Below, in pieces: positions 5,474-52,899 of a stretch of 64,000 bases of DNA. The stretch is from Raillietiella orientalis (lineage: Eukaryota). The notes beneath the pieces were generated by a model that was given only the letters and a program-made list of their open reading frames with translations, was not told where the DNA came from and searched no databases. The translations under genes were made by a program, and so were the position numbers. The stretch spans positions 8,060,001 through 8,124,000 of the forward strand of contig JAYWIR010000001.1 in assembly GCA_036172245.1 (NCBI GenBank). Direction: 5' to 3'. The first letter of the stretch is position 1. Every line of letters starts with the position of its first letter.

Positions 5474-5497
5474 AATAAACGTCCCGGCGCAACCGGG
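5474..5497 (+). terminator. Family 3'-terminal signal: AATAAA followed by hairpin CCCGG-CGCAA-CCGGG
   Basis: The same stem with a different loop occurs at 15402-15416 and 52392-52406, each after a T-rich 3'UTR. Confidence 0.7.
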
Positions 5498-5502
5498 TTC
5501 AA

Positions 5503-6829
5503 AACGCATCAGCGAGGAAAGGCTTAGAACGAGCTCCGCCGCGAAGCACTGAAAGAACTCCGCGGGCAGGCCATCCTCCCCAGGAGCCTTACGCCTCTTC
5601 AGGCCCGCTATGGCGGAAGATACTTCTTCCGCCGTGAAGGGCCAATCCAATCTGGCGCGTTCCTCCTCGTCAATAGCAGGGTTGCCCGTCGGAAGAAGCA
5701 GCTCGGAGAGACTGCGTTCCGTGGGCTCCTCCGCGTACAAAGAGGAGTAGTAGCGCTTGACTACGCGGTATGGCTTCGGCTGCATCCGAGCATTCCTGGC
5801 CAGCGTCATCGAGCAGACAAGCCGCTCCAGACTGCCAAACCTGGCGCTCGGCCCTGGCCTTGTACTCCGCCAGACGCCGGACGTCCGGGCATCGGGAGAA
5901 GGTACGCGCCTGCAGATAGGATCTGCTGTTCGCGACACCCTCCCCGAAGCCGCGGGGAAGCAGGTGCAAGGGGAACCGGCAGCAGAACTCGCGGACCGAT
6001 CTTTTCAGATCGTCCCAGTCCTCGAGTTCAGGATGGCGAAGCCCCGGATGTGTTGGCGAAGATGCTCCGCCGCCTCCGAATTGCTAAGCCAGTCGGCCGG
6101 CAACCTCCAGACATTCATCGGAGGCCCTTTGCCAGGCGGGAGGAGCTCGAACTCCAGTCTCGGATGATTCGAAATCGCGGACAGCAGGCGCCCTCTCCGA
6201 CCTACTCGTGAGAGCAGGTGTTCATCGAGGAACGCATGGTCCGGCGATCTCTCCATCCCGGGCTCACCAGCAAGCAAGTTTTGCACGCGCACGGACGCGC
6301 ATACCTCGCTCACCAGTTGCTTCTCCCTCAAGCGGCATTTCTCCTCAGTTAGCAGGTGGACGTTGAAGTCTCCTGCAAGGAGGTGCGCCACGTTAGGGCC
6401 GGAGTCAGCGAGCCAGCGGCTGCGCAGGCCACCCAGGAATGCAAGTCGCTGGGCGTAATGCCGGCCGCCGCTCGGCGCGTAGATGTTCGTAACGACCAGG
6501 TCGATCGATTCGGACCACTTGAGGACAAGTTGGCTCACACGACCTTCCTCGTCGAAACAAACGTCCCGCACCGCCTCCGCCACGCTGCCTCGGACGAGGA
6601 ACGCGATTCCGCACGTGTGCGCGGAGCCTTGCCGCCAGTGTAGCGTCCCGCCCGCGCGCTCTTCCAGATCCGATGCCTGCCGTTCTGAGATGCTATGTAT
6701 CTCCTGCAGCAGAACCAGATCGAACGCGCGCAAAGCCTTGGCTACCGTCCGCCTTTTGTCAGCACCACGTAGCCCGTTCACATTCCAACAGGCCACGCAG
6801 ACGCGACGAGCGGACGCGAGTCCACGCAT
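5503..6829 (-). pseudogene. E2 ORF2 endonuclease to RT domain 0, frameshifted and truncated
   Basis: WNVNGL, LQEIH, NIYAP, AGDFN, PDHAF, SNH, then WPFTAEEVSSAIAGLKRRKAPGEDGLPAEFF, spread over three frames. Confidence 0.88.
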
Positions 6830-8764
6830 CACTGCTGCGGACATGACGGCGTGCTCCTCGCCCCGTCCGGCGAGAAGTCAGCTGGTAGGAGAGCGGATTG
6901 GGAAGCGGAATCGCTCCCGTTCGCCGCCACATCGCGCCCAGCTGAGTCTTGGGAGCCGAGGATCATCGCCTCGGTCTCCGTGCAGGAACCGGAATCGCCA
7001 ACGGCAACAGGCTCGTGCTTTCGCACTTTAGCACGGCGCGCTACCTGCTTAACCCGGGATGCGCGCTCCATTTGTTTGCACTCGGACTCCACCTCGGAGT
7101 TCGAGTGCCTAGCGCGAGACTGGCGTTTTGCCAGTCTCTTTTTGTTTCGGCAGGTGGAGGCTTGCCCTGCCCGCGCGGGGGTCGTCACAGCCGCCAACGC
7201 AGCTTCCGGAGCTTTGGCTTCCGCAGCCTCCCTCTCGCGCGAAGCGACAGAGACAGAGCACGCAGCCGAAGTACGTTCCTGGGTGCGCACCTTCTTCGGC
7301 GTGCTTCTCTTTTGCCTCCCGCCCACCTTAAGGATGGGGAATATTGAAGGGTCAACCTTCTTCCCCTTTGTGGGCGTCCTGGAGACGCGAGTCCAGCCCG
7401 CGTCGGGGACGCTTTCCTGGGAGGCCGACGCCTCCCTCAATTGTTTGGCCGGAGATGCCGGCTCACGTTTCGCGCTCGCGACGGGAGACGGCTCCGTCCC
7501 CGTTACGCACTGCACCTGCTCCTTAGCCGATGCGGGCGAAACGGCGGTCATTGCCGTCGTCCCACGAGGCGCTATTGCAGCCTTCGCTGCTCGTGCCTTC
7601 GGCGTGGAAGACGTGATCTCCACCGCCGTAGGAGGAGACTGCCGTTCAGAGGCAGCACCGAGGGTACCCGCGCATGGTTTCCCGTGTGCTCCGCTGGACG
7701 CGCAAGCGGACGCGGACGGTTCAGCAGCCTTGATTGAGTGCGGGCCCGCACTCTTAGGCTGCTTCGAAGGGGGCGATTTGCCCCCAGGGCGACGTGGCAT
7801 GTTTCCCGTCTGCGCGGCTGTCTAGGATGGTGGCTTCCCTGAAGCAACCGCGCCCTTTTTCGCGGGACCGCCACTCGAATTTGCCCCGCCCTTCGCGCCC
7901 GATTTCTCCCGTGGCACAACGGGGGATCTTTTCGGCGCGGACGGGGTAGATTGTTGGCGGATTTTCGCCTGCCGCTTTCTCTTCAGCTCATCGCACTCTT
8001 TGATGGAGTGGCCGAGCTGTTTACAATAGCGGCAGTTGCGTAAAGGGAACGTCCACAGACGGTGGCTCTCTGCACCGCAAATGCCGCAAGCTGGTCGCTG
8101 ACCGGCAAATTTAAGGTGGACGATCGCATCGCCCACCTGCAAGTGCGGAGGCATTTGCCTCCTATCCGCCATGGTGACACGCGCCATGGCAAGTCCGCTG
8201 TGGAGAGATGCAATCCTTTTGATCGGATTGTCTCCTCTCCACAGCGCGTGCACCGTGGCGAATGCACTAAGTGCAGCGACGAGCATGCGGTCGGGCGTGT
8301 CCACATGGACGGCGGACAATCGACCACGAACGACTGGTCCATGGCCGACGGGACGACTTCCCGCGGATATTTAGCGGGCTTTGGAGAAGGCGCTGGACTA
8401 GGGATGCCTCTTTGCAGTGCACCTCCCAGTGTCCGAGCGCGTTAACCGGCATGACGGCCAGGAGGTCGTCCTGTCGGACCCCGACGCGCAAAAGCTCATC
8501 CCATAGATTTTCTCCGACCCCGTCGGAGATCGCAGCACTCACCGGATAGCAGAGCGCAGGCTTGTAGCCATGGGCTGCATATTCCTGCAGCTCCGCTTCG
8601 TCGGGCGGTGCTCCGTTGGCTGCCGCCGCCTTGACGACGGCGGCGAAGCTTCTCGCCGGTGGCGAGACACAAGAATCAGAGGCGGACCGGACATCTGGAG
8701 TAGAGTCTCCACTGCCAGCAGCAGCCTCCACATCCATCTTTTGCTGCAGGGGCTCCGTGGACAT
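6829..8764 (-). pseudogene. E2 ORF1 (divergent subfamily), disrupted
   Basis: RSFAAVV...GYKPALCY N-terminal block; knuckles CGICGAESH and CRYCKQLGHSIKEC; frameshift near 8340 and stop at 7822. Confidence 0.85.
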
Positions 8765-8845
8765 CCCAGTGGACGCACTCGGGCACACCTCACACAAGAA
8801 GACGGAAAGAAATCACGCTCGAGGAGCAACACAGAATACGTCCGT

Positions 8846-9045
8846 GCGGGCGTCGTCGTCGAGCGGATTCCCGCCATCGTCGAATGCAGCGCTAAAAAAC
8901 TCGCTGCTCCCGCTTCTCAACCCTCGGTTGACAAAGTCAACAAGGGAAGCGAGGCGGCGGCGTCCGTCATCGAGCCCACGATCGATGACTTCGCCTTCGA
9001 GCGCGCCACGGAGATGGCTGCCTCGTTGCATCCGGCCAGCCCAAG
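8846..9045 (+). pseudogene. Short ORF1 C-terminal fragment of an E1-type element
   Basis: VVVERIP...PSVDKVNKGSEAAASVIEPTIDDFAFERA matches E1 ORF1 VVVERIP...PSVDSVNSEGSEPAAASVIDTTIDDVAFARA. Confidence 0.85.
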
Positions 9046-9138
9046 GCCAGTTAGAGAACGTGTTTTTCCTTCACTCCTCAAAGAGTAGTAGGAAAGCGTT
9101 TTTCTTGTGTGGTGTTTTGTGTACATCGTCGGTGTCCA

Positions 9139-10879
9139 ATGGCCACGATGCCTGAGGACACCGCAATGGAGGTAGGCGCGGGGAAGGCTAGTTCGCCCCC
9201 ACAGCCTACTGGAGCAGGATCAGCCGCCCCGGAATCATCCCCGGCCACGCCGAGGACATGGAGTGCCATGGTGGCCGCGCCCAGCGCGGAAGCCATGGCG
9301 GAGATGGCCGCATACAAGGCCTCCGGGTACAAGCCATCGCTTGTCTACCAGGTAGGCAACTTGTTCGACGGTCGGAAAGCGCGCGCCTTTAGTAAAGCGC
9401 TGAAAGACGCGAACGTAATGGAGAAGGATCTAGACGGCCTCTCCGTCCTCAGCGGCGGGCAGAGGGTCGACGTGGTCTGCAAAGACGTCACCTTGGATCA
9501 CCGCCTAATCCATGCGCCGCTGAACGTAGACTGCCGGAAGATCCTGCCAGTGTCAATGGACCGCTCCGTGGTGGTCCACATGACTGGCATTACCAGCCGC
9601 ATGACGCGGTCAGCGGTTGGTGAAGAACTGCGCAAGTACGGTGAGGTGCACGCACTGTGCCCGAAACCCACCACTTTCGACGGCTCCGATAGCCTTTTTG
9701 GTGGTCAGGCTGCAGCGCGGGTCACCGTAAAGGAGAATTGTGGGCTTCCCCACAAACTGACGGTCGCGCAAGAAAGCGTGGACCTTTGGTACGTGGGGAA
9801 ACCACGATACTGCGGATACTGCGATCCCGTGGGACGCCTTCGTAAGAGGTGCTAACATCCAGTGCCACCTGTGCGGGGAGAAGGGCCACGTTCGGCGTGT
9901 GTGCCCGAAGCGCCCCACTCCGGTTCCCCCTGCCGCCAAACAAGCGCAGGGGAAACGTGTCTTGAAGGTCGCAAGACCTAAGGCGGAAAGTGTCCGGCAG
10001 AAGCTGCCAGAACCTCAACTTCCGGCGCAAAAGCCGGAAGATAAACCTTCCGAAGTAATGGAAGGAGAAGAGGGCTGGCAGCTTGTTGCCGCCAGAAAAG
10101 CCAAGGCCCATCCGCGAAGAATAAAGAGCGTAAGCTGGCGGGCAAATCAAAAAAACCCGGTCCGCGCTCAAAAACTCTGCGCGAGTGCACGGTGGCACTG
10201 GAACGAATCGTCGTTACCGAGGCTGCCACCCGGGGCGACGAGCCTCCCCTCGCCGTTTCCGCCGCGTCCGAGGTTCGCGACGGGAAACCCTCTGTTTACA
10301 CAGAGGGTGAGCCGCGCGACATAGCGGCGGTCGAAGCCGCGGATGCCCCGTTCGCGCAGGCAGCGGAGGAGCTCGCGGTCACGCTGGCCGACCGTGAGAA
10401 CCCCTCGCGCAAGGCCGTGCGAAGGACGGCTCCGACGAAGAAGGCCCCCACAGGTGAGTTAGACTTGGGGGCCGGAAGTACGTCCTCCTCCTCGGAGGCA
10501 CCCCCCAGGAAGTCGGGACGCATGTCCCAGAAGCCCAGGAGGCGCCTCCCCTCCACCAGCGAGGAGGAGAAGCAGGAAGGTAGCGGAAGCGTGGGAATCC
10601 CGGAGGGGGAACTCCCACACAAGCCGTCGAGCCGGCCACCCCATGGATGAGGGTGAACAGGGGGGTGAAGTCCCCCCTGCATGCGCCGACCCTGAACAGC
10701 CCGCCCCCATGGAGGAGGGCGAACAGGTAGGCGCGACCCCACCTGTGGGTGACCCGCTCGACGCGCCGTTACCTATGGAGGAGGGGGACCAGCTGCCTTC
10801 AGCACCTGACCCTCCTCCTCCACCTAGCGTCCCGCCCCAACAGGTGGCGGACGCCGCATCGCCATCTTCCCAGGAGTAA
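9139..10879 (+). pseudogene. E3 ORF1, frameshifted (element 5'UTR starts near 9050)
   Basis: RTWSAMV, GYKPSLVYQVG, LPHKL..VDLWYVG and knuckle remnants spread over several frames. Confidence 0.88.
10641..10810 (+). repeat. Imperfect 66-bp coding tandem repeat (PM[DE]EG[ED]Q, about 2.5 units) in the E3 ORF1 tail
   Basis: Unit ATGs at 10643, 10709 and 10775 give an exact 66-nt period. Confidence 0.8.
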
Positions 10880-11770
10880 CACCTGGGCTCGCCAGTCGCC
10901 GTTGTATTCGCGCGGCCTGTTGGAATGTCAACGGGCTGCGCGACGACGGTAACAGGAGAGATACAGCCGACACCCTGCGGGAGTTCGACCTGACCCTGTT
11001 GCAGGAGATCCACGTGATCACCGCGGCAGACGTCCAGGAGATCGAAACGATCGCGGGGGGTCGGCTGTACTGGCAATGCGGCATCCGCAACACCTGCGGG
11101 GTCGCGTTCTTCGTGAAGCCGGCCATCGACGCTGCCGTGAAGGGCGTGCGCTTTGATGACGACGGTCGGGTCGGTCAGCTGATTCTCGGCTGGTCCGACT
11201 CGATCGATCTGATCGTCACGAATGTGTACGCCCCCAGCGGAAAACAGAGATACAGCAACCGTACCAGGTTGCTTGAATCCCTGCAGCGCGACTGGCTGGC
11301 GAACACGAGCGTGCGGAAGGCTCACCTGATAGCGGGGATTTCAATCTCCGCCTGCTAACAGGTGAGCCGGAAACACAAGAGAACGCGATGAACGAGTTGT
11401 GCGCCGGCATGCGTGCGCGCAACTTGTTCGCGGGTGAGAGGGGAATGTACCGCAGGATCGACCACGTCTTTCTCGACGCTGAACTGTGTTCACGGGTCGG
11501 CACACGGGGGAGGATTGCGTCGACGCTGTCGGACCATTCCCGGTTAATTTTTGAGATGCGGCCTCGCGACAAGGGACCGCCATCCAGGGATTGGCGTCTG
11601 CCGGGGGACTGGAAGCGACTCTCAGGTGCGAAGGAACACCTTCGCGAATTCCTAATGGGCGTCACGCTGCAGAGTCTCTCGGATTGGGACCTTCTCAAGG
11701 CCTCGGTCGGGGAGTTCTGCGAGCAGTTCCCCCTGGACCGCCTGCCCCCCGGATTCGAGAAACCTCCTTG
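10880..11770 (+). pseudogene. E3 ORF2 endonuclease, start codon lost, frameshifted, truncated after PLDRLPPGF
   Basis: CWNVNGL, LQEIH, NVYAPSG, AG(D)FN (frameshifted), IDHVF, SDH. Confidence 0.88.
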
Positions 11771-11771
11771 C

Positions 11772-12770
11772 AACATCGCCGTCCGCGCCGACTCCATTCG
11801 CCCCGTCGTTGGGGAAGAAATCCGGCTCGAACGAGGTTCCGCAGCGGACAAGCACAAAGTCCGATTGCGCGGGCGTGTCTGGGAGCAATGCTCCTCAAAA
11901 GCCCGCGCAAAAGGACAAAAAGCTTCTCCAAGGTGCTAAAAACAAGCCCCGAGCAAAGCAGTCTGGAAAAAACCTCGGGCAGACTGCAAAACTTCCGCTT
12001 CCGTCCGCTCTCGCTCCGGAGCGAAATAGCGGTGGCACGCCCGGGAAGTCCACCGGAGCGTTGAAAAAGGGGTCGCGCGCCCCTTTGCCAGCGACAGGCA
12101 AGCCGGCCACGGCGGGCCGAACGCCAGCAAAGGCTGAAAAGCCTCGCGCGACCCGCGAGAATCCCGCCACTCTGCCCGCACCTTCCGGTAAGGAGGTGCA
12201 GAAGGCCGACGTGGCGAAGGAGACACTGGCCTCCATCGCCGTATCCGAGGCCTTGTAAAGGATGCCAAGGACCTTGGAAGCCCTCGCGCCCAACCGAGGC
12301 AAACAGGAAGGCGGCGAGGATGGCTGGACCTTCGTCGGGGGAAAGGAGCGCAAACCGCGCGATCCTTCCCACTTCACGATCAAAAAGGTAGGCGGGGTGA
12401 AGAGGCAGCCCCGCGCGCCAAGTAAGGCGCAAGGAAAAGCCCCTGCTGCCGCCGCGCGCGCCGTCGCAAACACCCGCGGCGAGAGGGGAGCTGCCGAAGC
12501 CGTGACCCCGAAAGGGGGATCGGCGACGAAGGCACCCTCTAAAAGTGCTGGACCAGATCCGGGCTGCCAGCAAAAAAAGAGGCAGGCGAAACGCCCGCCG
12601 CGCGCGCGGAATTCGGACTCCGAGGTGGAGTCCGAGGGCAGCACTAAGGCTCGCCAAGCCTCGGTCAAAGCCAGGGCTGCGCGCAAGCCAAAACTTGCCA
12701 GGAAGAGCCTGATGCCGGGAACGGTTCCCGATGCTCCTTGGAGCCCGAGGCAATGGTCCTCGATTCCACC
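11772..12770 (+). pseudogene. E2-type ORF1 C-terminal fragment inserted between the E3 endonuclease and the RT
   Basis: KKRQAKRPPRARNSDSEVESE and EPEAMVLDS match E2 KKRLAKRQSRARHSNSEVESE and ETEAMILGS. Confidence 0.8.
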
Positions 12771-15167
12771 GAGCCGGATCGTTTCAGGTTGGCGGAACCG
12801 TTCACGATGGTGGAGATCACTTCCGCCATCGCAAAGTTAAAGAAAAGGAAGACACCAGGGGAGGACGGCCTGCCCGCGGAGTTTTACCATCGCTTCGCGC
12901 CAGAGCTGGCCCCCCTGGTGCTCAGGTTAAGTACGATGATCCGCGAACACGGCGAAGTTCCCGCCTCGTTCCGGTCAGCAAAAGTACGTCTCCTGCCGAA
13001 ATCAGGAGACTTACGCAACATTGGCAACTGGCGTCCCATCACAGTAGTGAATGCGGACGCAAAGTTGTATGTCAAGTTGTGGGCTGAGCGTTTGGGGCGG
13101 GTGGCCGCTTCCGTGGTGAGTCCCGAGCAGACCTACGCTGTTCCCGGACGAACCATGGAGGCCAACCTGCTCCTCGCCAGCTCATGGTGGCAGTTGCGAC
13201 AACGCGTTGCTCAGGATGGTCAAGGGAGCCTTGCGCTTCCCTCTGACCAAGAGGATCATGCAGAGGATAGGATGGACTCGGCGGGAGCCTTTGCCGTCGC
13301 GATCGATTTGCACAAAGCATTCGACTGCGTCGACCAGGATCTCCTTCTAGAGCTCCTGGAACGCATGGGTTTCCCGTCCGTGCTCCGGTCTTAACTGCGC
13401 TCCTGCTGGCGCAACGCGTATATAAATATTGGTTTCAGCGGCCGGCACGTGTACGGCGTGCCAGTACGCCGTGGCATCCGGCAGGGTGACAGCCTGAGCC
13501 CCTTGCTCTTCAGCATCTACTTCGAGTTGGTGCTGAGGGCATACAGGGTAACTCTGGCAACTCTGCCGAGCTCCTGTGCCGGCACGCCTGCCGTGTCGGC
13601 CTATGCAAACGATCTTCTGCTGCTGCTTCCCGGGTCCACCCCGGCAAGTGCGCTCGAGGAATTCTTAGAGTTGCTGCGCCGCGGGACGGGCCTTGAGGTG
13701 AACAGGGCGAAGTCATCGATGGCTTGTGTTGGCTCGGCGTGGGCTGGACGGTCGGACTGGATCCGCTTGGGGATCCCCACGGGCAGGTGCTTCAAGTTCC
13801 TTGGCGTTCCGTTGGGGGACTTCTGCGCAGCAGAAGCCTGGTCCGACCGTCTCCAAAAGGCAGCGTTGGCGACCGTTCCGTTCCAAGAAAGCAAGTTCTA
13901 CGTGCAGGAAGGGGCCGCGGTGTGGAACGCGTTTGCGGTCCCCCTCCTTCGCCCCCTACTTTTTGTATGCCCCGCCCCTTATTTTATTCGGAAACGAGCA
14001 GCGGGCCTCCTGAGGACAGTCCTTTAGGGCAAAGGGAGGTCCCGTGTGAGGCTCAAAGACTTGTGCGCTCCACGTAAGGACGGTGGACTTGGCGTACTTA
14101 CGCTGGAGCGCATGGAACTGCAACTCCAATTCAGGACTCTCGCCCTCGCGGCCGAATTGTGGGACACGCCTTGGAGCGTTCCAGCACGCTCCCAACGAGC
14201 CTGCGGATCCGGCGGACTTTTGTCGTTTCTGTCTGCGCGCGTCTGCAGAAGAGCACACTGTGGCTCTATGCTGCGACGCATCTTCGTTGCGGTTCGGGAG
14301 AACGCCTGGATCTCCTGCCTCCCAGGGAACTACTCTGCCTGGTTGCACGAGTCAGTCTCCACCTGGGAAAAGATCTACGTACCGGCGGGCACAAGGAACA
14401 CTTGCCTGAAAAGGCACGCCCGCTGGACGCTGCAGGAGATCGTGCAGTCCCACGACAAGCTTCTGTGGGCCTTGATAACCCCCCTCGCCCCAGTGCTGCG
14501 CTTCCATGTGAATGCCAGGGACAGTAGCGAGCAGGGGAAATGGACCGTGTCCTGCACCATAGTCGGCAGGACACAATCGATAAAGGCGTGGACATCTCAG
14601 CAGCTAGCTGACGCTGCGACGCCGAGTGTCCCGCGCAACGGAATTCGACGCTGGGGCGAGCTACTCGGACTATCTCCGGAGGAGATGAAGTGGCCCCCAG
14701 CGTCCTGGAACAGTGCATCCCTCCCCCTGAAATGGTAGGATGTGGCGTTGCTTGTGGTACTCTGGGGATTACCATTCAAAGCACGCCTGCACCACACCAC
14801 CCGGGGGGCTGTGGATCCTAATTGTGACCGGTGTGGGGAAAAAGAAACATTCCCCCACCTTCTCCTTGAGTACAGCGCCCTCCGCCCTTTGTGGGATCGT
14901 CTCGCGGCGATCCTGGACTTGCACGGATGCGGCGCAAAGGACGTTTTAAGGCGCCTCTTCTGTAGTGACGCCTTGTCCCCGCCCGCTAGGGTAGCAGTCC
15001 TCTGCTGCATCAGAGGAATAGTGGCGGCTTGGAACGGCACCAGAAGAAGGCGTCAGCCAACCGGCAACGCCTTACACCGGATTCAGCTTTTCGCGCGCAG
15101 TGTCTGCAAGTGGCGCCACTTAGGCGCTGAAAGGACTCAGCTTGTGCGGATCCTGAATAGGATCTAG
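12770..15167 (+). pseudogene. L1/Tx1-like ORF2 RT to C-terminus with in-frame stops and YADD changed to YAND
   Basis: PGEDGLPAEFY, NWRPIT, IDLHKAFD, GIRQGDSLSP, YAND, DGGLG, CDRCGEKETFPHLL; stops at 13394, 14027 and 14738. Confidence 0.93.
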
Positions 15168-15392
15168 AGGACCTGTCCACGCGCACCGTGATCCCTTCCC
15201 CGTCCTCCCACCCCTACAACATTTGTTCCCCCCCACATTTGAACTTTTTGTTTCTTTTTGTTTTTCTTTATTTCCCATCCCCGCGCATCGGAAGGACCTC
15301 TCCAGCATGGAGCCGCTAACCAGCAAGCTGTTTTGGAGTGGTGAACCTTCGGGTTCGCCATGCGACATTTCGATGTAATTTTATTTCAATGA

Positions 15393-15416
15393 AATAAATG
15401 CCCCGGCACATCCGGG
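15393..15416 (+). terminator. Family 3'-terminal signal AATAAA + CCCGG-CACAT-CCGGG
   Basis: Homologous to 5474-5497 and preceded by a GAACC-TTCG-GGTTC hairpin at about 15343-15356. Confidence 0.7.
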
Positions 15417-15429
15417 TGTGAATCGCCAC

Positions 15430-16444
15430 GGCGCGCGCGAGGACGGACGTGCTTTTGTGGTGCTCCGCGTTTTTCTCGCGAGTGGTCTCTGTGTTTTAGG
15501 TTTGAGCGGTTGTTCCTGGGCAGAGATGCCCGAGGACGCCGCCAAGACGGCGGAGGGGGGCGAGCGAGCCTCGTCCCCCCAGCCCATGTATGGGGGGCAT
15601 CTCCCCCACGGAATCGTCCCCCGCCCCGGAGAGAGCTTGGAGCGCGGTGGTGGCGGCGCCTGCGCCGCCCCCCGCAGAGGGACAGAGGGCGTATATGGCC
15701 GACGGGTACAACCCGGCCCTGCTTTATAAGGTAGGTGGCCTATACTCCCCCGCGGTCTTGCGGTCCTTCGCCGCGGAATTCAAAAAGTTAAAAGTCCCGG
15801 AGGAAGAAGTCTTTGGGCTTTCGGTAAGAAGTGGCGGGCAGCTTGTTGAGCTAAACTGCAAGTCTGCAGGGATGGCTAAACAGCTGCTCCGCCTGCCGGT
15901 GAGCGTGAACGGGAGAAGAATTTTCCCGTTCACGGCGGACAATTCCATCGTTGTCCACCTCACCGGTATAACCATGCGAATGGCAAAGACCGCCGTTCGC
16001 AAAAGTCATGAAAAGTTCGGGACGGTCCACGTGTTGTGGGCAAAACCCAATCTCCTGGGTTACACCAGGGCTTTTAGTGGTTACGCCGCTGCCCGCGTGA
16101 CCGTCCGAACCGAGGGTGTGCTACCCCACAGACTACAGGTCGGAGAAGAGCATATCGACCTGTGGTATGTGGGGATACCCGTGTACTGCGGCTTCTGCCA
16201 GGTGTCGGGGCTCCTGAAAAGAAAATGCCCCAACATCGTGTGCCTATGCTGCGGTGAGAAGGGACACATCAGGCGGATGTGCCCCCAACGCAAGAGGCCC
16301 GTTCGAGTAGGCGAAAACAAGGAAGTGCCGAAGGAACAGGGCAACAGCCAGCAAATGGTAGAGTCCCGCCCTGCCCCCCAACCTGCTCCTCAGTCATCCT
16401 CCAGCACCGAACCAGCTGGAGAAAAAGACGAGCGTTACCCGTAA
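15430..16444 (+). pseudogene. E4 5'UTR and ORF1 (ATG 15526, frameshift near 15590), truncated at the viral cluster
   Basis: GGACGTGCTTTTGTGGTGCTCC 5'UTR motif; RAWSAVV, GYNPALLYKVG, CGFCQVSG..C, CLCCGEKGHIRRMC. Confidence 0.88.
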
Positions 16445-16625
16445 AGATAAGGAAAATAATGAGCACATGCAATACGGCTTCATCGAAAGTTCGAAAAATG
16501 TAATCACTTCTGATTCCATATACCAGGGAAGTCTCAAATACTTTCAGCCTCTTCACATTATCTGCTTTGCTAATTGGCAGCCTGACTTCGCAAAACTTTC
16601 CACTGACAGATGGATCATTCATAAC
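16445..16625 (+). pseudogene. rep: Endogenous CRESS-DNA virus Rep 1, C-terminal SF3 helicase fragment
   Basis: QYGFIESSKN...YQGSLKYFQPLHIICFANWQPDFAKLSTDRW contains motif C and the arginine finger; homologous to the three other Reps. Confidence 0.85.
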
Positions 16626-16976
16626 AACTCCTCTACAAGCATCAGCAAAAGGGTTCCTTGGCAAATTGGACAAGGAAGCATTCTCCCATGGCCTGTTTCT
16701 TCAAGTTCTAATATAGAAACAGCCCCTGACTCGCCTGCTACCTCATCAATATCCACACCTTGCGGAGCGTCACCCGCATGCGCCACAGAAAACGAGTTTG
16801 CCTAACCTTTGAGGTAACTCGCCTCAATGTTGGAAGCCAATTCGTGGATTTCCTGCCGCCCATTAAACTATAATGATTGGCAGCTAGAATCTATTGAGTT
16901 TTCGGCTGCATTTTAGGGAATCAGTCCCGAAGATCTTCTCCCCCTGCGTCAATTTCAACCTTGGTCACTCCAAGAT

Positions 16977-17471
16977 GTGATGCAGGACGAGATGAATAGA
17001 GGGTCAGATAACTGCGCAATCTGGGTAATACTGACCAGATTGCGCAGTTATCAGTCTAACTACGCAGTTAAATTTGTTGATATGAAGTACAGTGATCGCA
17101 TGAAGAATTTAGCTTGGCATCAGAGGAAGAGGACTTCCTTTTTTTATAAATTTAAAGAAAGAGATGTGTCTGTGTACTGTAGAAGTTGTGTTGAAAAGCA
17201 GTCTGTAGTGACATCTAAGGGTGATTCTGTGATATATTATCGATCTAAATGTCCTTGGCTTAGTACTGAAAAGCAAACTGAAATGAGCTCTTATGTGTTG
17301 ACTGGTCATTCTATAATAGCGAAGCATGTAGTGGGATTCAAGGTTCCAGCTGAATGGACTCAACAGAAAGCTATCCAGGAAAATAATGTTATTCAAAAAA
17401 ATGCTCCAATGTTTAGAATTTGGAGAAAATTTTATTCGCAATTCAAAGGGCTTAGGGATATAAGATATTAA
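16977..17471 (+). CDS. Putative CRESS/circovirus-like capsid protein (C-terminal part)
   Basis: Lies between Reps. KCPWLST and terminal FYSQFKGLR resemble C-terminal motifs of circovirus-like capsids (recognised from memory, not searched). Confidence 0.45.
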   Translation: MMQDEMNRGSDNCAIWVILTRLRSYQSNYAVKFVDMKYSDRMKNLAWHQRKRTSFFYKFKERDVSVYCRSCVEKQSVVTSKGDSVIYYRSKCPWLSTEKQTEMSSYVLTGHSIIAKHVVGFKVPAEWTQQKAIQENNVIQKNAPMFRIWRKFYSQFKGLRDIRY

Positions 17472-17640: not shown

Positions 17641-18560
17641 ATGCCTTATGAATTTTTTTTTCAATTGATGCCTTACATTGTATAACTACTCCGAAAACTT
17701 CAGAGCTATCAAACAATGGTGCAGATGCAACTGCCACTTTGCCTGTATTGGCAGAGAAACGGCAGATACCGGTACACCGCACTACAGGGCTACTTGTTAT
17801 TGAAGGAACCGAGGAGAATGCCTGGTTTGCACCGAAAGCCTTTTCACAAGTGTCACCTGGAAAAGGCAAAAGGTTCACCTCAGAGCAACCTGAAGTACTG
17901 CACCAAGCAGGACAAAGAAGCATGGGTTTACGGAGCACTGAACGAAGACGCAGAAGCAAAAGCTTATGAAGAACAAGCAAACTGCGTAGTTGACTATTTC
18001 AAGGTCATTTTCTTTTCAGATCCTACAACTCATCGAAAATGGCGCAGGCGAACAGTTCATTCTCAAGCACCATACGAAGTTTTACGCAAAGAACATCAAC
18101 TTTACAAAAGAATGTTTCCGATTATCCCGCAGCAGAACACATCCCGACCCACTCGCTCATCTTCAGCTCAAAGAATGGCAACTTAAAATCTTAGACATTA
18201 TACGACATCAACCTCACGAGAGTAAAATATATTGGTTCTACGACCCAGCTGGTAACGCCGAGAAGAGAAGGATGGCCAAATTTCTCTTCCTTAAAAAAAA
18301 GGCCATCTACATGCATTCCTGCAGGAAGGCCGATGCGGTATATCTACAACGGAGAATTATCTCACTGACTTCACCCGGGACAACCAGGAACATGTGCAGT
18401 ATGGATTCATAGAAAGCCTAAAAAACGGTATCATCTTCGACGGCAAGTATCAAGGCTCCATTAAATACTTTGAGCCACCACACATACTGGTTTTCGATAA
18501 TTGGGAACCAGACTACAACAAAATGTCAACGGACAAAGACGGATTATCAATAACATCTCC
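17641..18560 (+). pseudogene. rep: Endogenous CRESS-DNA virus Rep 2, full length and frameshifted
   Basis: Motif I CLTLYNY, II TP(H)LQGY, III YCTK; WFYDPAGNAEK (decayed Walker A), DFTRD, YGFIESLKNG, GKYQG, PHILVFDN. TATATAA at 17587. Confidence 0.92.
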
Positions 18561-19055: not shown

Positions 19056-19084
19056 AATTCCTGCTAGCGTCGCAAGCAGGAATT
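19056..19084. repeat. Imperfect hairpin AATTCCTGCT-agcgtcgca-AGCAGGAATT upstream of Rep 3
   Basis: 10-bp perfect arms read directly from the sequence. Confidence 0.7.
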
Positions 19085-33019: not shown

Positions 33020-33340
33020 GAGCGAATCCCTATTCCGGGGGAACCCCTCCGCGTCGGACTGATGGAGTGTGTCGCCACCACCTCTCCAGAGAGTGCGGAG
33101 ATGCTAGCCGATCCCTTCGGGGAAGCTGCGTCCTTCTGAATTTCGGAAGCATCCCTTCAATGTTCTCTTCAAAGAAGTAAAAGCAGGATCGCATCCTTAC
33201 CGGGTTTCCTTCAGAGAGAAAAAACTGTAGCGGACCTCTCCAATGGTCTCTTCGGAGAGAATAAGGAAAGAGATTCTCTTCTGGATTTCCCTTCGGAGAC
33301 AACCGTTCCTTGGGCATTCCCAGGAGGATCTTTCGATAAA
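33020..33340 (+). repeat. Partial body copy of the SINE-like family
   Basis: CTTCGGAGAGAATAAGGAAAGAGATTCTCTTCTGGATTTCCCTTCGGAGACAACC matches 32480-32540. Confidence 0.6.
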
Positions 33341-36300
33341 GGTCCCGGCGTGACCGGAGGTGACAACTAAGGCTCACATATCGGAGGCGATTTGAAGCTC
33401 TCCGCGATGCCAGGATCCTGCGCCTCACAAATGGAGTGGATCGTTCTTTCTGATACCGATGAGAAAGGAGTACAAGATCCGCCGCTCCCTGCTGCCGCAC
33501 TCTGCTCGCCAGGAAGTTTCCACCTCGAGCAGAATGCGGTCGAGCGTGGAGCTGCCGTCGTTGTGCTCCGAGTCGGGGGCGCACGCTACCGTGAACCACA
33601 AACGCACCGACCGAGCGAAACCTCGGAAAGCCGGCAGCAGGTCCCGCGCTCGCGCGGAAAGGACAGGCGGGAAGTCGTGGCGACGCCGCTTCGGCCCAGC
33701 TCCCCATCTCAGCGCGCGCCCAGGATCTCTCCTTTCCTCCTTCGCTCGATCGGACGGAGAAGAATCCGAGAGTGCTCGGCAAAACGCGCGCAACCTTGAA
33801 ATCCCGGAGGCAACCGACGCGGCAGGGAAGTCGTAAATCCGGAGTCGAGCGAGTCGGGAGCTGGAAGCCCGGATCTCTCCGCCAAGACCCGCTGGTAACG
33901 CTGCAGGGCGGAAGGACGTCGTGCACATGGCGAAGTGGTTCAGCTGCTCATCCGCTCCCACTCACGGGAGCACTGAGGCGCCATTGTTCTGGAAAGAAGC
34001 AGCCTTTGTCTCGGTGACGAAGGTCTCCTTCCTCATTTCCTTGCGTGCTGCAAAATCGTGACTAACAAGCTGTTTGCATTCTTTGCACTTGCGTCTCCGC
34101 CAAGCTCACAGAGCAAACAGGCATCCGGGAAAAAAGAAAGAAAGAAATCGAACGGGGGAAATCTTTCGATTTCACAAAGCTCTGCTCGGCGGCGAAGCAA
34201 TGGAACCGCGAGCTGCTCCTGTTCCTCATACAGTCAGAGGCGCATCTCTTCTGCTTTTCGAATTTTGCTCTCCTGGTGGAAGTTTGCAAAACGGAAAAAC
34301 AGCGGACAAAACGATGATATCACTGTTTCGTCGGAATTCCGCCTCCTCTGGGAGATGTTGGAGCGCTGCGATATGAGGCATTTCTTTTTTTTTCTTTTCA
34401 AAGCAGCATCAATCAGCTGATGATGGCGAATTGTTTTTCTTGTGAGACAAACGAAGGAGGAGGATTGTTTTTCTGGATTGTGGAAATGGTTTGGAAATCT
34501 ACGCAGCTGTGCTTCGGAAATGAAGTTCTTAGAGCGCGTTCCCGTCGGCGGGACAGTTTTCCAAGCAGGCGCGAGGAACGCATCGGTTGTTTCATTGCGC
34601 GTTTCATTGTTGGCAACCGTGAAGGCGGAGGCGACGCCATTTTCCCTTCCATTGAAGGGGGAAGGAAAATGGCGCCTGCTCATCCGAAACGAAGAGTTTG
34701 CAGCAAACTTTTCTCGCGCATGCGGCGAAGATACGCTCAAAGAGTGTGGTCCCCAGTAAAGGGGCAAATCCTTGCTTTCAGTTGCCCCGACAGTTTTCTT
34801 TTGCAGCACCAGCGTAGGAGGTTCTTGATTTCCATGGATCATTCCTCGAGTGTTTTGGATCTCCGTGAACTTTAGCAGTCTGCTTTTTTTCTTTTTTGAA
34901 GCTTCGCAGGTGAGAAGTTTCACCGCCACCGGAGGGTGGCGTTTCGCGTCACTGCCACTTCTCGGGAACACGGCGAAGAAGCGGTGGAAAGCGAAGCGGT
35001 GCGAACGGATGAGCAGAACGATGAAAGCGAGCCGAGGTGCTGGAGTCGAAGGGTGAGTCTCTCACTCGCTCTTCTCCCTGGATCGGTGCGTCGGGATCAA
35101 CCGCGAGTATGAAAAGGGCTCTCGGTCCTTCCGATGTCTGTTTGAAGACCGGATGCCTCGGGCAAACTCTCTGCTCTTCATTTCCATCTTTGGGGAAAAC
35201 CGGGACGCGAAGGCATCGGCAGCGCCCAAGTCCGACAGCTGCGACTGTCGGAAGACGCCGATAACCAACTTCTGTGCAGCCTCCGCGCTTAACTCCCCGC
35301 CTGACATCCCGAAACGAGTGAGGAAACCAAGGAAGAACGGAAGCAGAGAGGATGAAGAGTCGGTTCCCGGTGCTACCACGGAAGGGGAGAGTGGCATTAT
35401 GGGGGGGGGCATGCAAGAGGTAAGAAGGGTGGTCAGGCGCTCCGGAAGGCGAGTGACTGCTGCTGGCAACCGCAAGGAGCAAGTCGTCGGGGACGGTGCG
35501 TAAACGACAGAAGGTCGTGTTTAGAGGCTCTGGACACTGCCCTCTTTGCCTCTCGGCCCCCTTCCCTCTTCCTGTTCCTTCGTGAGAGAAGACACTCCCT
35601 ACCTGATCTCCTGACCCAGGGAACAATGGACGTGGGGCAGTCGGGAGAGCCAGGGTCTGTACGAACGTTCCCCTCCCCCTACCCCTCGGGCAGCTGCAGA
35701 AGCATCCCTGGAGTCGCAGGCGCGTCCTGGGGGTCCGGAGGGGGGAACCGCTCAGAAGTGGCATCGGTGACACCCCAGGCGCCGGCATCCCATACGAGCT
35801 CTCTGCAGCAGCAGGCGGACTATCGGCGGGGAACGCGGAAGGTTCCCGTCCTCGCCACCGGCGGCGCTGTTCGTAGTGATGGGCCCTGTCCTACGGGGAA
35901 AGTGGAAGCATGCGGTCAGGCTTGGTGCCCAAGAGAGCTCGGTCCGCCGAAGAGGCGACGTTTTTCCGGTGAGCGCGCTGCTGCCCACCGTCCTAGGACG
36001 CTCGAAGAATGGCGGCTGTCAGGTCTGTGGGTCGGATTCCGGAAACCCGGATGTTCGGATGCCCTCGGGGAAGCACCCCTTCCGAACGGACGCAGCCAAA
36101 ATCTCACAGACGGGAAACTTCCGCTACATGCAGGCGGCCTTCTTCCTCGAAGTCCCGCGCTCAGCGTGGCGCCTCTCTCCAGCCCCCCCGCGCTTCCCGG
36201 TTTGTCTCCCACTCTCAACCCTTCCCCGGGATGGATGCATGCCGCATCCTTCCCCTCCTTTGCGCCTCACCGCCTTCCCAGAGGTTTCTGCGGCAGTCCT

Positions 36301-43879: not shown

Positions 43880-44220
43880 TCGGCAGATGCCCGTCAATCC
43901 GCATCCGCCGATGGTCCCCTAAACCGTCCTCGTGTTCGACCCCCGAATCCGCATCCATATCTTCACGGCGTGAACGGCATAGTTTCCGGAAGACGACCGC
44001 AGGGAGTGTGGAGTTCCCTCCTGCTCCCCACCACCCGATCCCTACACTTACGGAGTGGCCGCAGGGACCGCAGTGCTTGGAGGACAGCAACGCCAGGCGA
44101 CGAACCTTCGCTCCTTGCAAGCGACGTCCGAGCAACAGCCTCGTAGCTGAGGAGGCAGGTGAACTCTGACCCGTCCCTATTCTTCCGAGGTGCACCTGGC
44201 AGGTCCTCCTGGCCTCGGCA
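43880..44220 (+). repeat. Unclassified dispersed repeat, inverted relative to the copy at 46810-47080
   Basis: GCATCCGCCGATGGTCCCCTAAACCGTCCTCGTGTTCGA...CCGGAAGACGACC..GGAGTTCCCTCCT aligns with the reverse complement of 46900-47070. Confidence 0.7.
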
Positions 44221-46809: not shown

Positions 46810-47080
46810 TACATGGCCGGTCCGCTAGGAGGGAAGCGTGAAAGATGGGAAAGGGATGACTCCGGGTCACTCTGTGTGCGCGTGCGCCCTCTTTGAAGAT
46901 GGATCATTCAGGAAGCGAGGGAATCGAGAGGTGGGGTTAAGGAGGGAACTCCGTTCTTCACGTGGTCGTCTTCCGGTACCTGCTCCGCTCACGCGGCAAC
47001 GGTGTGGATGCAGATCCGGAGGATCGAACACGAGGGCGGTTTGGAGGACCGTCGGCAGATGCGGGATTCCGTATTGCGCT
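46810..47080 (-). repeat. Unclassified dispersed repeat (partner of 43880-44220)
   Basis: Direct visual alignment with 43880-44220. Confidence 0.7.
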
Positions 47081-47329: not shown

Positions 47330-47635
47330 TTCCTTGAGGGGGTGTGCGTAACCCTTCCAGTTTGGGGGCAATCTCGTGGGGGCAACCCAATGAATCCAGG
47401 AGAGGTCCCGGAGGAAGGAGTCCACTCCTCTCTTTCTCCTGGGAGAAAACCCCGAAAAAAAGACTCATCATGATCGTCTCGGGAGATGCTTCTCCGAGGA
47501 CGTGGACACTCCTCGTTTCCTACCCGGGAAGAACTCACAGCACGCTCGGGTTGTGGGAACTGGCCTTTGTAGGCCCCAGCTTCAGGGCCGCTGCTGATGG
47601 GACAGAGGCCGCAGCGCCCCATCCTTCGCTGACTA
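47330..47635 (-). repeat. SINE-like body fragment (47330-47530) joined to an about 100-bp L1 ORF1 N-terminal fragment (47535-47635)
   Basis: CCAATGAATCCAGGA..GGAGTCC matches the SINE body; 47535-47631 is closely similar to 55297-55393. Confidence 0.6.
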
Positions 47636-50600: not shown

Positions 50601-51339
50601 GATTCGGATGCATGGGGCACGTTAAAGAGTCATCTGTCTACTTGCGTTACATCCAAGCAGCGGTCTCTGCCCTCAGGCTTTAATAAAACAGCGGCCCACG
50701 TTGCAGCATTTCACCGGAGATTCACAACACGAGCAAAGGGCCCTGCCTTCCAAGACGATCTTTCCTTCCATCTTATTCCCTATGACGCGCATTCAAGGAC
50801 ACCTTCTTGCTCTAGGTGGACTTCTGCCGAGTGGAGCTCTCGCTGGTCGCATCCTACGCGCCGAGCAAAACCTCCTGCCTCAGCGATCCCCAACCCGACT
50901 ACTACACGGAGAAAGAAAACTTGCATGAAAAAAAGGTGAAATGGGACACGATATCCTGAAAAGCGTTTCGTTAAGTTTCTTTTTCATGTTTTGCCAGCTG
51001 TTCCTTTTCTCCCCTCCTCACGCTTTCCGCTGTTCTTTTCAACCCTTCTACCTCCTGCTCTTTTTTTTTTTTCTTCTCTACCCTCGTATTCTCAGTTTCA
51101 AGCTCCGTTCCTTCTCTTCTTTCTTACCCTTTCTTCCCTTCATGCTCTGCTCTTTTTCACAATGGAGATTTTGCTGTTTTTCCTGATCTCTCTTTTCTTT
51201 TGTTTTTTGTCTCACAATCCCGGTTCTTTTCCGCAACAGGGAACCCCATTAACACCATTCCTGCATCATCCACCGAACGCAAGTCCTTCCGTAATACAAC
51301 GTGACCTCTCCTCAGGTGAAGGGAGACATTCGGCGGAGG

Positions 51340-52410
51340 CATGACCTTTTGGATGCTGGTGAGTCCATCTTGGAACGGAAATCCTCAGCGGTATGGAACT
51401 GACTACGCGTCGGGCAGGACGCCCCTTACTTCTTAGGATGGTCCTGGAGAGCCCCGGCAGGCGCATGTGAGCGGAGACGACCCCCCTTGCTGCAACGAAG
51501 TCCTTTCTGAGGGAAGCGCTTGGAAGCAGCCAAAGGACACTTTGGGAAGTCTCCTACAAATTCGGAGGCTGGTAGAAATTCATGAGTGGCTGCACCTGGC
51601 TGGCATGAAACAAATGGTAGACGCCGCGAACCCGAGTGCCCTTTCACTAGGATTAGAGAGCTGAGGAAAGCTCCTCGGAATTCGATCTGTAAACCTACAG
51701 TGCCCTCGGTGCTGAAGGATATGAGCACCCTCTCCTTGAAGTGGCAGAAGACGTCCTTTTTGCCGTTGCACTGGGTTCCCCTTGTTACGCACACGGACAC
51801 CACTGTACTCTGGAGAGGGCGAACCCAGACTGTCCCGGGTGAGGAGAACGGGAATCTCTTCCGCACCTGCCAGCGGATTTTGTTGCCCTCCGACCCCCAT
51901 GGAATATTTCCGAACGAAGTTCCGGACCCTAGTTGGCAACTTCCCAGGGACGTTTCATCACTCCTTTTCGTGCAGGACTCCCTGCAGCCCGTCCCCGCCT
52001 TAGCAGCGCTTTGATGCTTCCGCGGGATTGCGTGAGTCTGGAGTGAAGCCAACGTAGGAAGAATCGAGAGGGACGCCACTGCACTTCGCAGTTTGCTTTT
52101 TGAGGATAGCGGTCGGATGACCGCACCTTGGACACATTCGGACGGACACATCCTGAAACGAATGCCGACTCTCTCCAGCAGGCAGTGATCTCCTTCTTAC
52201 CCTCCAGATATGTGTTATTTATTCTTTATTTTTTGTTTTTATTTTTAATTTTTCTCCCATCGGCTCTTCCGCTGCAGAGGTGATTCTGCCGATGAGCGCA
52301 CCGGTGACCTGGCAGTTATTTTGTTGAATTGGCCACGGCAGGTTTCGTACCGCACCAGAAAAGTCGTAAAGTTATTTTCATCGAGAAAAGCCCCGGCGTG
52401 ACCGGGTGGC
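51340..52410 (+). mobile_element. Decayed 3' end of the same L1/Tx1-like family, ending in CCCGG-CGTGA-CCGGG
   Basis: VDAANPS and LSLKWQ..LHW remnants; T-rich 3'UTR at 52210-52260; terminal hairpin at 52392-52406. Confidence 0.7.
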
Positions 52411-52899
52411 AACTCCAAAGCCTGAGGGCAATTCGTCCTAGGTGAGGAGGCTGCAGAACTCTCGAACCGATCGTTTCAAGCGCTCCGAGTTCTCGAGTGT
52501 CTTCATGTTGATTCTGTAAGGGAACCCGTGAAGGTGTTCCGCAGCTAATGGTGCGCTGAACCAGTCCCTTGAATAATGCCACGCATGGGGGCGAGGATCT
52601 GTGCCGCATGGCCAAATCTTCAACTCGATCGGGATGTAGTTGGACAACGTGGACTCCGAGTTACCTCTCCTAGATACGCGTCAGCATAGGTGTTGGTCGA
52701 GGAAGGCGTGTTTGATGCCGCCCACGGACCCGGGGTCCTCGTTCAACAGTTTGAGCTCATGCATCGATGCGTACACCTCGTTGGCGAGGTTTCACCCCCC
52801 CATTCAGCAAACCTAGCAACAGGAGGACGTTCAGGACCCCGGTTGTCTGCTGCGCTTGCCATATTCCTCCTTCAGACAGCCATTCTTTTCGAAATGGAA

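Follow-up and report, generated by a model that had tools for sequence, protein, structure and literature searches.

In several green algae, the centromeres consist of LINE clusters that grow by self-insertion, and the criterion for the elements Zepp and ZeppL is one cluster per chromosome, at the centromere. The Drosophila elements HeT-A, TART and TAHRE form arrays of LINE copies only, all head to tail, with the 3' end attached at the chromosome tips. Stringent-type LINEs (the eel UnaL2/L2 group of the L2 clade) carry a short conserved 3' stem-loop, which implies specific recognition by the reverse transcriptase (RT); to our knowledge, self-clustering has not been reported for this group. R2 initiates at a structured 3'UTR without poly(A). 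Zepp of Coccomyxa subellipsoidea C-169 has 61% GC in a 53% GC genome, occurs in nested clusters and targets existing copies (PMC3446292, PMC8226300). Zepp and the ZeppL elements of Chlamydomonas and its relatives are L1 LINEs whose copies are nearly confined to clusters, GC-richer than the genome and mixed with other TEs, in which they lie nested or in tandem; they are described as targeting existing copies (PMC8226300, PMC3446292, PMC9940879). R1 of Drosophila rDNA is described as forming tandem arrays when new copies insert again and again at a site that is restored next to the resident copy, and the R2 RT as jumping end to end between templates (PMC2718515).

In this study, one 64-kb stretch of the genome of Raillietiella orientalis (the window) was analysed, with the contigs of run X1 as a second data set. 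Family DNA accounted for 21.2 of the 64 kb (33%) and formed two islands, and positions 1-16433 were unbroken family DNA. Its GC content was 51-64%, compared with 47.5% for the remainder of the window. The copies (Table 1) were 66-74% identical in nucleotides and 34-70% identical in protein, so they belong to several old lineages and not to the single family proposed in the initial annotation. No telomere-type repeats, tRNA genes or Rfam families were found in the window, and a search for target-site duplications found none. The window resembles Zepp/ZeppL, as these are described, in its L1-type elements, a GC content above that of the surroundings and other TEs mixed in, and its two islands would fit a confinement of copies to clusters. 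Unlike Zepp/ZeppL, its termini consist of a stem-loop and a 7-nt tail without poly(A), copies lie in both orientations and some meet head to head by their 5' ends, and lineages of 34-70% identity lie in one island. The arrangement appears to resemble the self-nesting LINE clusters of green-algal centromeres most, rather than a new end-specific targeting.

Table 1. Positions of LINE copies, fragments and terminal structures in the 64-kb window.
Feature	Positions	Strand	Stem	Tail	Description
B-inv	1..3388	-			almost intact copy, from RT (cut by window edge) back to 5' end
B-dir	3389..5504	+	5483-5497	5498-5504	5'-truncated, from RT motif HKAFD to 3' end
C	5505..8849	-			inverted copy, from RT start back to 5' end; decayed; frames of 181, 182, 330, 290 and 199 aa
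H	8850..9040	+			sense piece resembling B ORF1; 73% nt identity to 2063-2246
A1	9041..11756	+			5'UTR, ORF1 and EN, to Gly-Phe of the EN-RT linker
K	11757..12770	+			basic insert like the ORF1 C-terminus; resembles C 7398-7024 (E 6.5e-15); in place of ~90 codons of the ORF2 linker in A
A2	12771..15423	+	15402-15416	15417-15423	ORF2 from just upstream of RT to 3' end; three in-frame stops
D	15424..16433	+			5' end and first ~300 ORF1 codons, head to tail after A2
Small ORF2 C-terminal fragment	16797..16988	+			matches B-dir aa 346-409
Candidate fourth terminus	33306..33366	+	33344, one mismatch		loop same as in the 52392 copy; similar flanks
E	51477..52413	+	52392-52406	52407-52413	decayed ORF2 C-terminal part and 3'UTR
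F1	52414..52800	-			EN fragment in inverted orientation, running from aa 326 back to 195
F2	54330..55580	-			inverted ORF1 and 5' region; 5' boundary approximate
M	55585..55740	+			D-like 5'UTR; head-to-head neighbour of F2; ATG at 55686
G	57650..59445	-	decayed		most distant of the lineages (B-dir: 34% aa identity)

The stem pattern CCCGGNNNNNCCGGG (CCCGG-N5-CCGGG) had exact matches in B-dir, A2 and E and nowhere else in the whole window. Three matches were observed against 0.06 expected, and none of 100 shuffles gave three, which confirmed the reading of the same stem at three 3' ends. The 3' ends that bear the three stems are those of L1-like LINEs with an APE endonuclease (EN) and RT, and each stem lies ~240-260 nt past the end of the ORF2 C-terminal region. 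The true end of the element is 7 nt past the stem: a 5-bp stem closes a 5-nt loop, and an A-rich tail of 7 nt follows. In the window, the tails are TTCAAAA, TGTGAAT and TGGCAAC; those of run X1 read T+AATAA and TG+GCAAA. None of the three ends in the window had a poly(A) or simple-repeat tail; the stem and 7 nt were followed by foreign sequence. The stem was invariant across three lineages whose 3'UTRs were otherwise barely alignable (49% mean column identity), and a variant of the A 3'UTR in X1 lacked 182 nt (joint 15210>15393), yet kept the final ~30 nt. In this the elements seem comparable to the UnaL2/L2 group, with a short conserved terminal stem-loop in otherwise unalignable 3'UTRs, and recognition by the RT may likewise be implied. 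In DNA the stem is palindromic and reads identically on either strand; no second stem was found adjoining any stem. No recognisable element body was found upstream of the candidate fourth terminus, and its flanks were not assignable. The three intact stems mark the true 3' termini of the elements, which form a deep and poorly sampled clade of L1-like LINEs.

The Exo_endo_phos domain scored 52.9 and 47.9 bits in B and C (cut-off 24.5; E 5.5e-14 in B-inv and 1.9e-12 in C), which indicates an APE-type endonuclease at the ORF2 N-terminus. RVT_1 scored 47.5 bits, above its cut-off (2.3e-12 in B-dir), and zf-RVT, the Cys-rich region after the RT, scored 21.7 bits in B-dir, below the cut-off of 27.5. 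In plant-type L1, the nucleic-acid-binding module of ORF1 is a CCHC knuckle; here, zf-CCHC scored 11.6, 15.6 and 17.6 bits in the ORF1 of three lineages, in each case short of the 20.8 cut-off. The best named protein matches were L1-like proteins of plants and an oomycete (25-27% identity), and no Zepp or ZeppL proteins were among the named matches. The only relative above 35% identity in searches of a 5.8-billion-protein collection and a 1.8-billion-representative library was P0019. The clade is almost absent from protein databases.

All three intact 3' ends meet family DNA directly after the tail. The partners start at 5505, ~15424-15432 and 52414, and since the element ends 7 nt beyond the stem, each begins without a spacer. 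The initial annotation had read the inverted partners as starting ~0-6 nt from the stem, which is corrected here. The partners are inverted C after B-dir, sense D after A2 and inverted F1 after E, in agreement with the inverted copies and the head-to-tail 5'UTR read earlier. The C stretch 6874-5531 matched B ORF2 aa 12-459 with 45% identity (E 7e-109), and the F1 stretch 52797-52387 matched B aa 195-331 (E 3e-27). The ORF of D at 15506-16441 was 47% identical to B ORF1 (E 5e-69), and a 5'UTR block of B-inv was alignable with D; the D-B and D-M 5'UTR alignments had z of 8.1 and 5.9, scores reached by 0 of 200 shuffles each. The inverted partners had been described as internally broken. C is collinear from the 5'UTR to the start of the RT, with no internal rearrangement, and the ORF1-like insert lies in A; F1, the 387-bp fragment that E adjoins, is separated by 1.5 kb of unrelated DNA from the nearest other family piece in the island, F2. 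At the E-F1 joint, the reading of ACCCGG as Thr-Arg against Val-Arg had suggested priming microhomology. This in-frame reading exists, but the F1 homology ends at Gly-Phe-Gly and the following 7 nt are the tail of E, so only one residue is in common and the microhomology is unneeded.

The claim that every visible 3' end is a landing site applies to the three intact stems but not to G, whose 3' end (~57650) carries AAATAAATGC and a decayed stem, with no family DNA in its flank (tblastn, E<=1). Two more 3'-end-to-family joints occurred in X1, each in a single contig at 90% likeness and without strand information, and they give weak support. By simple arithmetic from the family share of the window, three randomly placed ends would all be followed by family DNA with a chance of ~0.036. 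The positions joined in the partners are scattered: the RT start, the EN Gly-Phe-Gly site and a 5' end in the window, and an ORF1 site and an ORF2 linker site in X1. At two 3' ends, X1 contigs run into other family positions than in the window. All six recognisable 5' ends (four well defined, A1 and F2 approximate) also adjoin family DNA, three of them head to head, so the effect is not specific to 3' ends. The arrays are built of the family's own members, as had been proposed; the proposed specificity for the 3' terminus was not supported.

The joints were of several types. A 5' end is joined to an internal site at 3388/3389 with 2-3 nt of microhomology, a 3' end to a 5' end at 15423/15424, and head-to-head joints lie at 8849/8850 and ~55580/55585. 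Sense-to-sense switches inside A occur at 9040, 11756 and 12770, and the internal-to-internal joints include 11756, 12770 and 16433. The A1 and F1 breakpoints in the EN-RT linker are at most 3 nt apart. In X1 contigs, A-type sequence starts at 8850 and is preceded by different, AT-rich letters; H is either a lone fragment or the beginning of the A-type 5' region. None of the three plus-strand 3' ends had flanks that continue each other, and an insert inside one contiguous host copy was not provable in the window; the decisive left flank of B lies outside it.

Several known mechanisms resemble parts of this arrangement. In B-inv/B-dir, an inverted 5' part is joined directly, by microhomology, to a direct 3' part, as in L1 twin priming. 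A twin-primed unit would come from one RNA, have nearly coincident breakpoints and be flanked by target-site duplications; B-inv reaches to within ~30 nt of the B-dir start at the window edge, with the flank lying beyond. The sense-to-sense chimeras within A are like L1 chimeric insertions. Unlike L1 twin priming, the window joints lack poly(A) and target-site duplications, both cDNAs often reach full 5' ends, and the partners are of different lineages; C/A was ruled out as a twin-primed unit for this last reason. Head-to-tail copies are shared with R1/R2, from which the window differs in having no fixed host target and no constant spacer between copies, and from R2, with its restriction-like endonuclease, in the APE-type endonuclease. 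A site-specific LINE with a host target (Tx1, R1 or R2 type) was rejected, as the three 3' flanks are all different. Extension of ends as in HeT-A/TART had also been suggested. Arrays composed of LINE copies are common to HeT-A/TART/TAHRE and the window, but mixed orientations, the presence of EN and the lack of telomere-type repeats in the window speak against it.

From the termini, joints, divergence and unequal decay, we infer that the clade, much like Zepp/ZeppL, integrates preferentially where its own relatives already lie, in their DNA or chromatin, with RT starting at the RNA stem-loop and with twin priming or template switching, and we hold this reading with somewhat less than even confidence. 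The RT would bind the RNA stem-loop of the element, and first-strand synthesis would begin where a resident copy is nicked, at sites that vary, so that intact 3' ends would be directly followed by family DNA. The small size of the 387-bp target met by E and the low chance that three random ends would all meet family DNA speak for this reading. The 5' ends would be joined via microhomology, and second-strand priming (twin priming) with template switching among family RNAs could produce the head-to-head and chimeric joints. The frames of B are open (ORF1 of 534 codons from the ATG at 3294 and a 468-codon EN part of ORF2 in B-inv; 647 codons, then the 3'UTR, in B-dir), with one frameshift near 372-374, where X1 contigs have one extra base. 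Its neighbours C and A have at least four interruptions each, and this unequal decay points to insertions made one after another into resident copies rather than to one event. Against the preferred reading, the exact 5'-to-5' and 3'-to-5' end joints are not predicted by simple nesting, the G 3' end has a non-family flank, and no target-site duplication was found. The preference is drawn from one window and short single contigs at 90% likeness, and we consider it a tentative one, a little short of an even chance.

The same joints could come from composite insertions without target preference, in which the RT, at the end of one template, continues on a second family RNA from its stem-loop 3' end and synthesis is also primed on the other strand, so that one integration yields several family pieces in both orientations. 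This would cover all joint types together (3'-to-5', 5'-to-internal, head-to-head and sense-to-sense in A), and B-inv reaches ~30 nt from the start of B-dir, as twin priming predicts. Precedents are the end-to-end template jumping of the R2 RT (PMC2718515) and the twin priming of L1 (PMC2837659). We regard such single-event composites without target preference as unlikely here. The adjacent pieces B and C are strongly unequal in decay and so were not deposited together, classical twin priming draws on one RNA whereas inverted C and A belong to different lineages, and the order of direct E and then inverted F1 is opposite to that in a twin-primed unit. The A-type sequence of X1 starts at 8850 behind other letters, so at least that chimera was later copied as a unit. 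Alternatively, the islands may be a transposon graveyard, shaped by ectopic recombination, deletions, end joining or gene conversion among old copies, whose termini would meet family DNA only since the island is nearly all family. The continuous family DNA of 1-16433, the many internal-to-internal joints (11756, 12770, 16433) and the decay of most copies fit this view, and the close A1/F1 breaks could mark a fragile or recombinogenic site. It is nevertheless quite unlikely: random breaks would rarely hit natural termini, yet all three 3' ends and at least four 5' ends are joined with a loss of a few nt at most; 66-74% nucleotide identity is a poor substrate for homologous recombination; and the young B pair has such joints too.

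In the model closest to the initial annotation, the EN/RT complex would recognise its own palindromic terminal stem in DNA and nick it, placing new copies at old 3' ends. Family DNA exactly after the 7-nt tail at three of three intact stems and two X1 joints, and the head-to-tail joint A2>D, are compatible with it. Read as inverted plus direct parts, the unit C..A2 lies exactly between the B 3' end and the D 5' end, and a palindromic site permits both orientations. Landing in opposite orientation should leave tail-to-tail stems, but no stem has a second one beside it, and the actual inverted partners are 3'-truncated and start internally (RT start, EN Gly-Phe-Gly). In addition, 5' ends are joined to family DNA just as consistently, and the microhomology offered is one residue. 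We therefore find recognition of the terminal stem improbable, and the same doubt applies to the broader form in which the machinery recognises its own stem-plus-tail in resident DNA, or the RT obligatorily jumps to a stem-loop RNA end, and copies are added, in both orientations, to termini already present. That the joints are chimeras of the assembly or of reads at a palindrome is very improbable. The differing family positions reached by X1 contigs at two 3' ends would agree with such an artefact, but the partners have no long near-identical repeat able to mislead an assembler, a fold-back would join the element's own reverse complement and not a lineage 45% identical in protein, and the joints are clean, with the same 7-nt tail recurring.

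The initial annotation knew of no L1/Tx1 lineage with such specificity for its own terminus; clusters of L1 elements nested in one another have been described for Zepp/ZeppL, and the novelty lies in the stem-loop terminus and in a clade that is poorly sampled. With its sharp stem-loop end, its clean joints and one or more nearly intact members, the clade would permit a direct test of which feature is recognised, the candidates being the DNA of the element, the end of its RNA and the chromatin of the site. If its own stem-plus-tail were recognised, the family would assemble its arrays and keep them renewed, perhaps as a centromere-like domain, and would need no host target sequence.

L1-like LINE pieces occupied 21.2 kb (33%) of the window, with a GC content of 51-64% against 47.5% in the rest. 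The elements encode an APE endonuclease (EN) and an RT, and the Pfam models Exo_endo_phos and RVT_1 exceeded their cut-offs. The Cys-rich C-terminus scored 21.7 bits with zf-RVT, below the cut-off of 27.5, and the zinc knuckle of ORF1 had a sub-threshold score in three lineages.

LINE pieces in the window, with position and strand
Piece	Content	Position	Strand
B-inv	RT back to 5' end	1-3388	minus
B-dir	RT motif HKAFD to 3' end	3389-5504	plus
C	RT start back to 5' end	5505-8849	minus
H	ORF1-like piece	8850-9040	plus
A1	5'UTR to EN Gly-Phe	9041-11756	plus
K	ORF1-C-terminus-like insert	11757-12770	plus
A2	to 3' end	12771-15423	plus
D	5' end and ORF1	15424-16433	plus
E	3' part	51477-52413	plus
F1	EN aa 326 back to 195	52414-52800	minus
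F2	ORF1 and 5' region	54330-about 55580	minus
M	D-like 5'UTR (z 5.9)	about 55585-55740	plus
G		59445-57650	minus

The initial annotation reported three 3' ends with a common stem, CCCGG-N5-CCGGG. This was confirmed. The pattern matched exactly three times in 64 kb (5483, 15402 and 52392; 0.06 expected), and none of 100 shuffles reached three matches. All three are located at 3'UTR ends, downstream of an ORF2 C-terminal region. When the junctions were aligned with homologous copies, the element end fell 7 nt past the stem. Family DNA thus follows directly, as annotated, but from this end and not from 0-6 nt behind the stem. The homology of C reaches ...GCTGATGCG, followed by the reverse complement of TTCAAAA and the stem. 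The homology of F1 stops at Gly-Phe-Gly, and TGGCAAC stands between F1 and the stem. Similar tails (T+AATAA, TG+GCAAA) were found behind B-like and A-like stems in contigs of a separate sequencing run, X1. The window junctions and the X1 tails together indicate that the terminus of the clade is AAUAAA-N3, a 5-bp stem, a 5-nt loop and a 7-nt A-rich tail, without poly(A).

The stem fold was predicted in all three copies, with non-significant z-scores for these short sequences (-0.14, -1.09 and 0.09). There was no stem covariation among the three copies because the stem is invariant; the remaining 3'UTR aligns at 49% column identity. An X1 variant without 182 nt of the 3'UTR still has the end. 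This variant and the invariance argue that the stem may be recognised, most plausibly by the RT. The reading of the stem as a host target outside the element was rejected: loops and tails differ by lineage, and the flanks are unlike. Insertion at a host target sequence was rejected on the unlike flanks and the absence of tRNA genes and Rfam families from the window. A further predicted hairpin, rich in AU, immediately precedes the GC stem in B and A and includes the AAUAAA (5463-5481 and 15380-15398); E lacks it.

All three intact 3' ends continued directly into family DNA, as had been claimed. All six recognisable 5' ends likewise adjoined family DNA; four were well defined by 5'UTR similarity, and A1 and F2 were approximate. 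Joining to family DNA is therefore not a property of 3' ends alone. The 3'-end partners began at scattered sites (RT start, EN-RT linker and a 5' end), and the proposed 3'-terminus specificity was not upheld. In X1, partners began at positions matching 2237 (ORF1) and 5774 (ORF2 linker), but these joints were weighed lightly because they are single contigs with a depth of 4-6, 90% likeness and no strand given. The sequencing runs listed comprised one DNA run (share 0.15) and no RNA. The suggested Thr-Arg/Val-Arg microhomology came down to one identical residue, from the tail of E and the stem. Three joints are head-to-head (3388/3389, 8849/8850 and about 55580/55585), and that between B-inv and B-dir is direct, with an overlap of 2-3 nt. 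With regard to plain nesting, the flanks continued each other at none of the three plus-strand 3' ends, the informative flank of B lying beyond the window. No target-site duplications were found in the window. The 8-mer CGCCACGG occurs at 9004 and 15424, and was taken as chance since no boundary is adjacent. The breaks in A1 and F1, two unrelated copies, both fall at the Gly-Phe(-Gly) codons of the EN-RT linker (11751-11756 and 52414-52422), at positions that differ by less than 3 nt or so. Chance may explain this (an estimated 5% or so after multiple comparisons), or breaks or pauses may be favored at this site.

Not every visible 3' end continues into family DNA. The annotation held for the three intact stems, but not for G, whose 3' end is AAATAAATGC plus a decayed stem and whose flank is non-family at E<=1. 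This flank contains a 340-codon open frame (56231-57253, plus strand) with a CxxC...H...C motif like the LINE ORF2 C-terminus. The frame is AT-richer, lies tail to tail with the 3' end of G, showed no BLAST relationship to the stem-loop clade and has no Pfam match; it looks like the Cys-rich C-terminus of another LINE. At 33344, a stem with one mismatch has its loop and flanks in common with the 52392 copy, but no recognisable element body lies upstream.

The copies had been treated as one LINE family. Their nucleotide identity is 66-74%, and their protein identity is 45-59% in EN and 49-65% in RT, with 34% for G, the most distant. They are thus several old lineages with one common terminus. 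The named database relatives, L1-like proteins from plants and an oomycete, shared only 25-27% identity. An unnamed metagenome protein, P0019, was closer, with 57% identity across the RT part in the 5.8-billion-protein collection and 74% over 98 aa in the 1.8-billion-representative library, where it was the sole match with E<=1e-30 among 1036. Searching viral_contigs for the pattern gave no match, and none of 425 pattern matches in the metagenome protein scan was confirmed. The 3'-end pattern was found in 84 metagenome stretches, none related by tblastn or blastn; these are most likely chance matches or, as a guess, bacterial terminators.

Other features lie between the LINE pieces. S10 (16797-16988) and E were considered as halves of one split element, which was rejected because their ORF2 ranges overlap. 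Two ORFs (17686-18183 and 23597-24088, plus strand) have a CRESS-DNA-virus Rep domain (Viral_Rep, 36.9 bits, above the cut-off of 26, and 24.7 bits, below it). The repeated units that contain them are spaced by about 6.1 kb. Related stretches occur at 16434-16610, 18361-18537, 19652-19819 and 24512-24705, and one piece adjoins the truncated end of D. These units look like endogenous Rep-bearing elements. The region 18001-28000 is AT-richer (42-48% GC). Its GC skew is strongly negative (-0.12 to -0.27), and its AT skew is positive for the most part. Between F1 and F2, an isolated fragment (53599-54117, minus strand) resembles the CLN3 (battenin) N-terminus (31.5 bits, cut-off 31); no further CLN3 pieces nearby and no database homologues of it were found. 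The GC-rich blocks at 32-36, 40-48 and 53-55 kb are connected by three pairs of short repeats (47537-47631 and 55299-55393; 43899-44042 and 46920-47064; 32343-32549 and 53096-53287), with identities of 76-92% and 70%; one of these repeats duplicates the start of the F2 ORF1. The blocks contain long open frames on both strands without Pfam matches.

Self-clustering of L1 elements has been described. Zepp of Coccomyxa forms 'clusters of nested elements', one per chromosome, with 61% GC against 53% in the genome (PMC3446292), and ZeppL of Chlamydomonas is described from centromeric clusters only. The statement that no such L1 lineage is described is therefore not right in general. A stem-loop with a 7-nt tail and no poly(A), combined with terminus-exact joints in mixed orientation, was not found described; the original Zepp papers, consensus sequences and cluster maps may bear on this. 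A literature search on LINEs targeting their own copies found nothing relevant among the papers listed. R1 tandem arrays are reported to arise by re-insertion next to resident copies, the R2 RT to jump from template to template (PMC2718515), and inverted L1s to be made by twin priming (PMC2837659).

The feature is real and tidy, and comes from a nearly unsampled clade. We tentatively favor a Zepp-like self-clustering clade of L1 type with a stringent stem-loop terminus, in which twin priming and template switching would shape the joints between family pieces. Composites formed in single events are a less likely but credible source. B-inv reaches to about 30 nt from the start of B-dir, as in a twin-primed pair, but decay is unequal: the frames of B are open over 534, 468 and 647 codons, and its only frameshift lies near 372-374, where one extra base is present in X1 contigs, whereas its neighbors C and A are each interrupted at least four times. 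This difference in age between adjacent pieces favors serial insertion into an older island. Rearrangement after insertion is unlikely. Nicking at the element's own terminus is improbable, as 5' ends adjoin family DNA as well. An assembly chimera is very unlikely, since no near-identical repeat is common to the partners. End extension like that of HeT-A/TART, also proposed initially, was rejected given the mixed orientations, the presence of EN and the lack of a telomere-type repeat in the window.

In copy A, EN and RT are separated by K, a basic sequence of about 1 kb that replaces about 90 codons. It is similar to the ORF1 C-terminus of C (7398-7024) and has the appearance of a product of recombination or template switching. 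In the N-terminal part of B ORF1 (3229-3269), X1 contigs have a 41-nt go-back and a 37-letter replacement, which suggests length variation among related copies. X1 contigs also begin at 8850 with other, AT-rich letters in front; the H+A arrangement, at least, was therefore copied later as a unit. We infer that template-switch chimeras can become heritable lineages.
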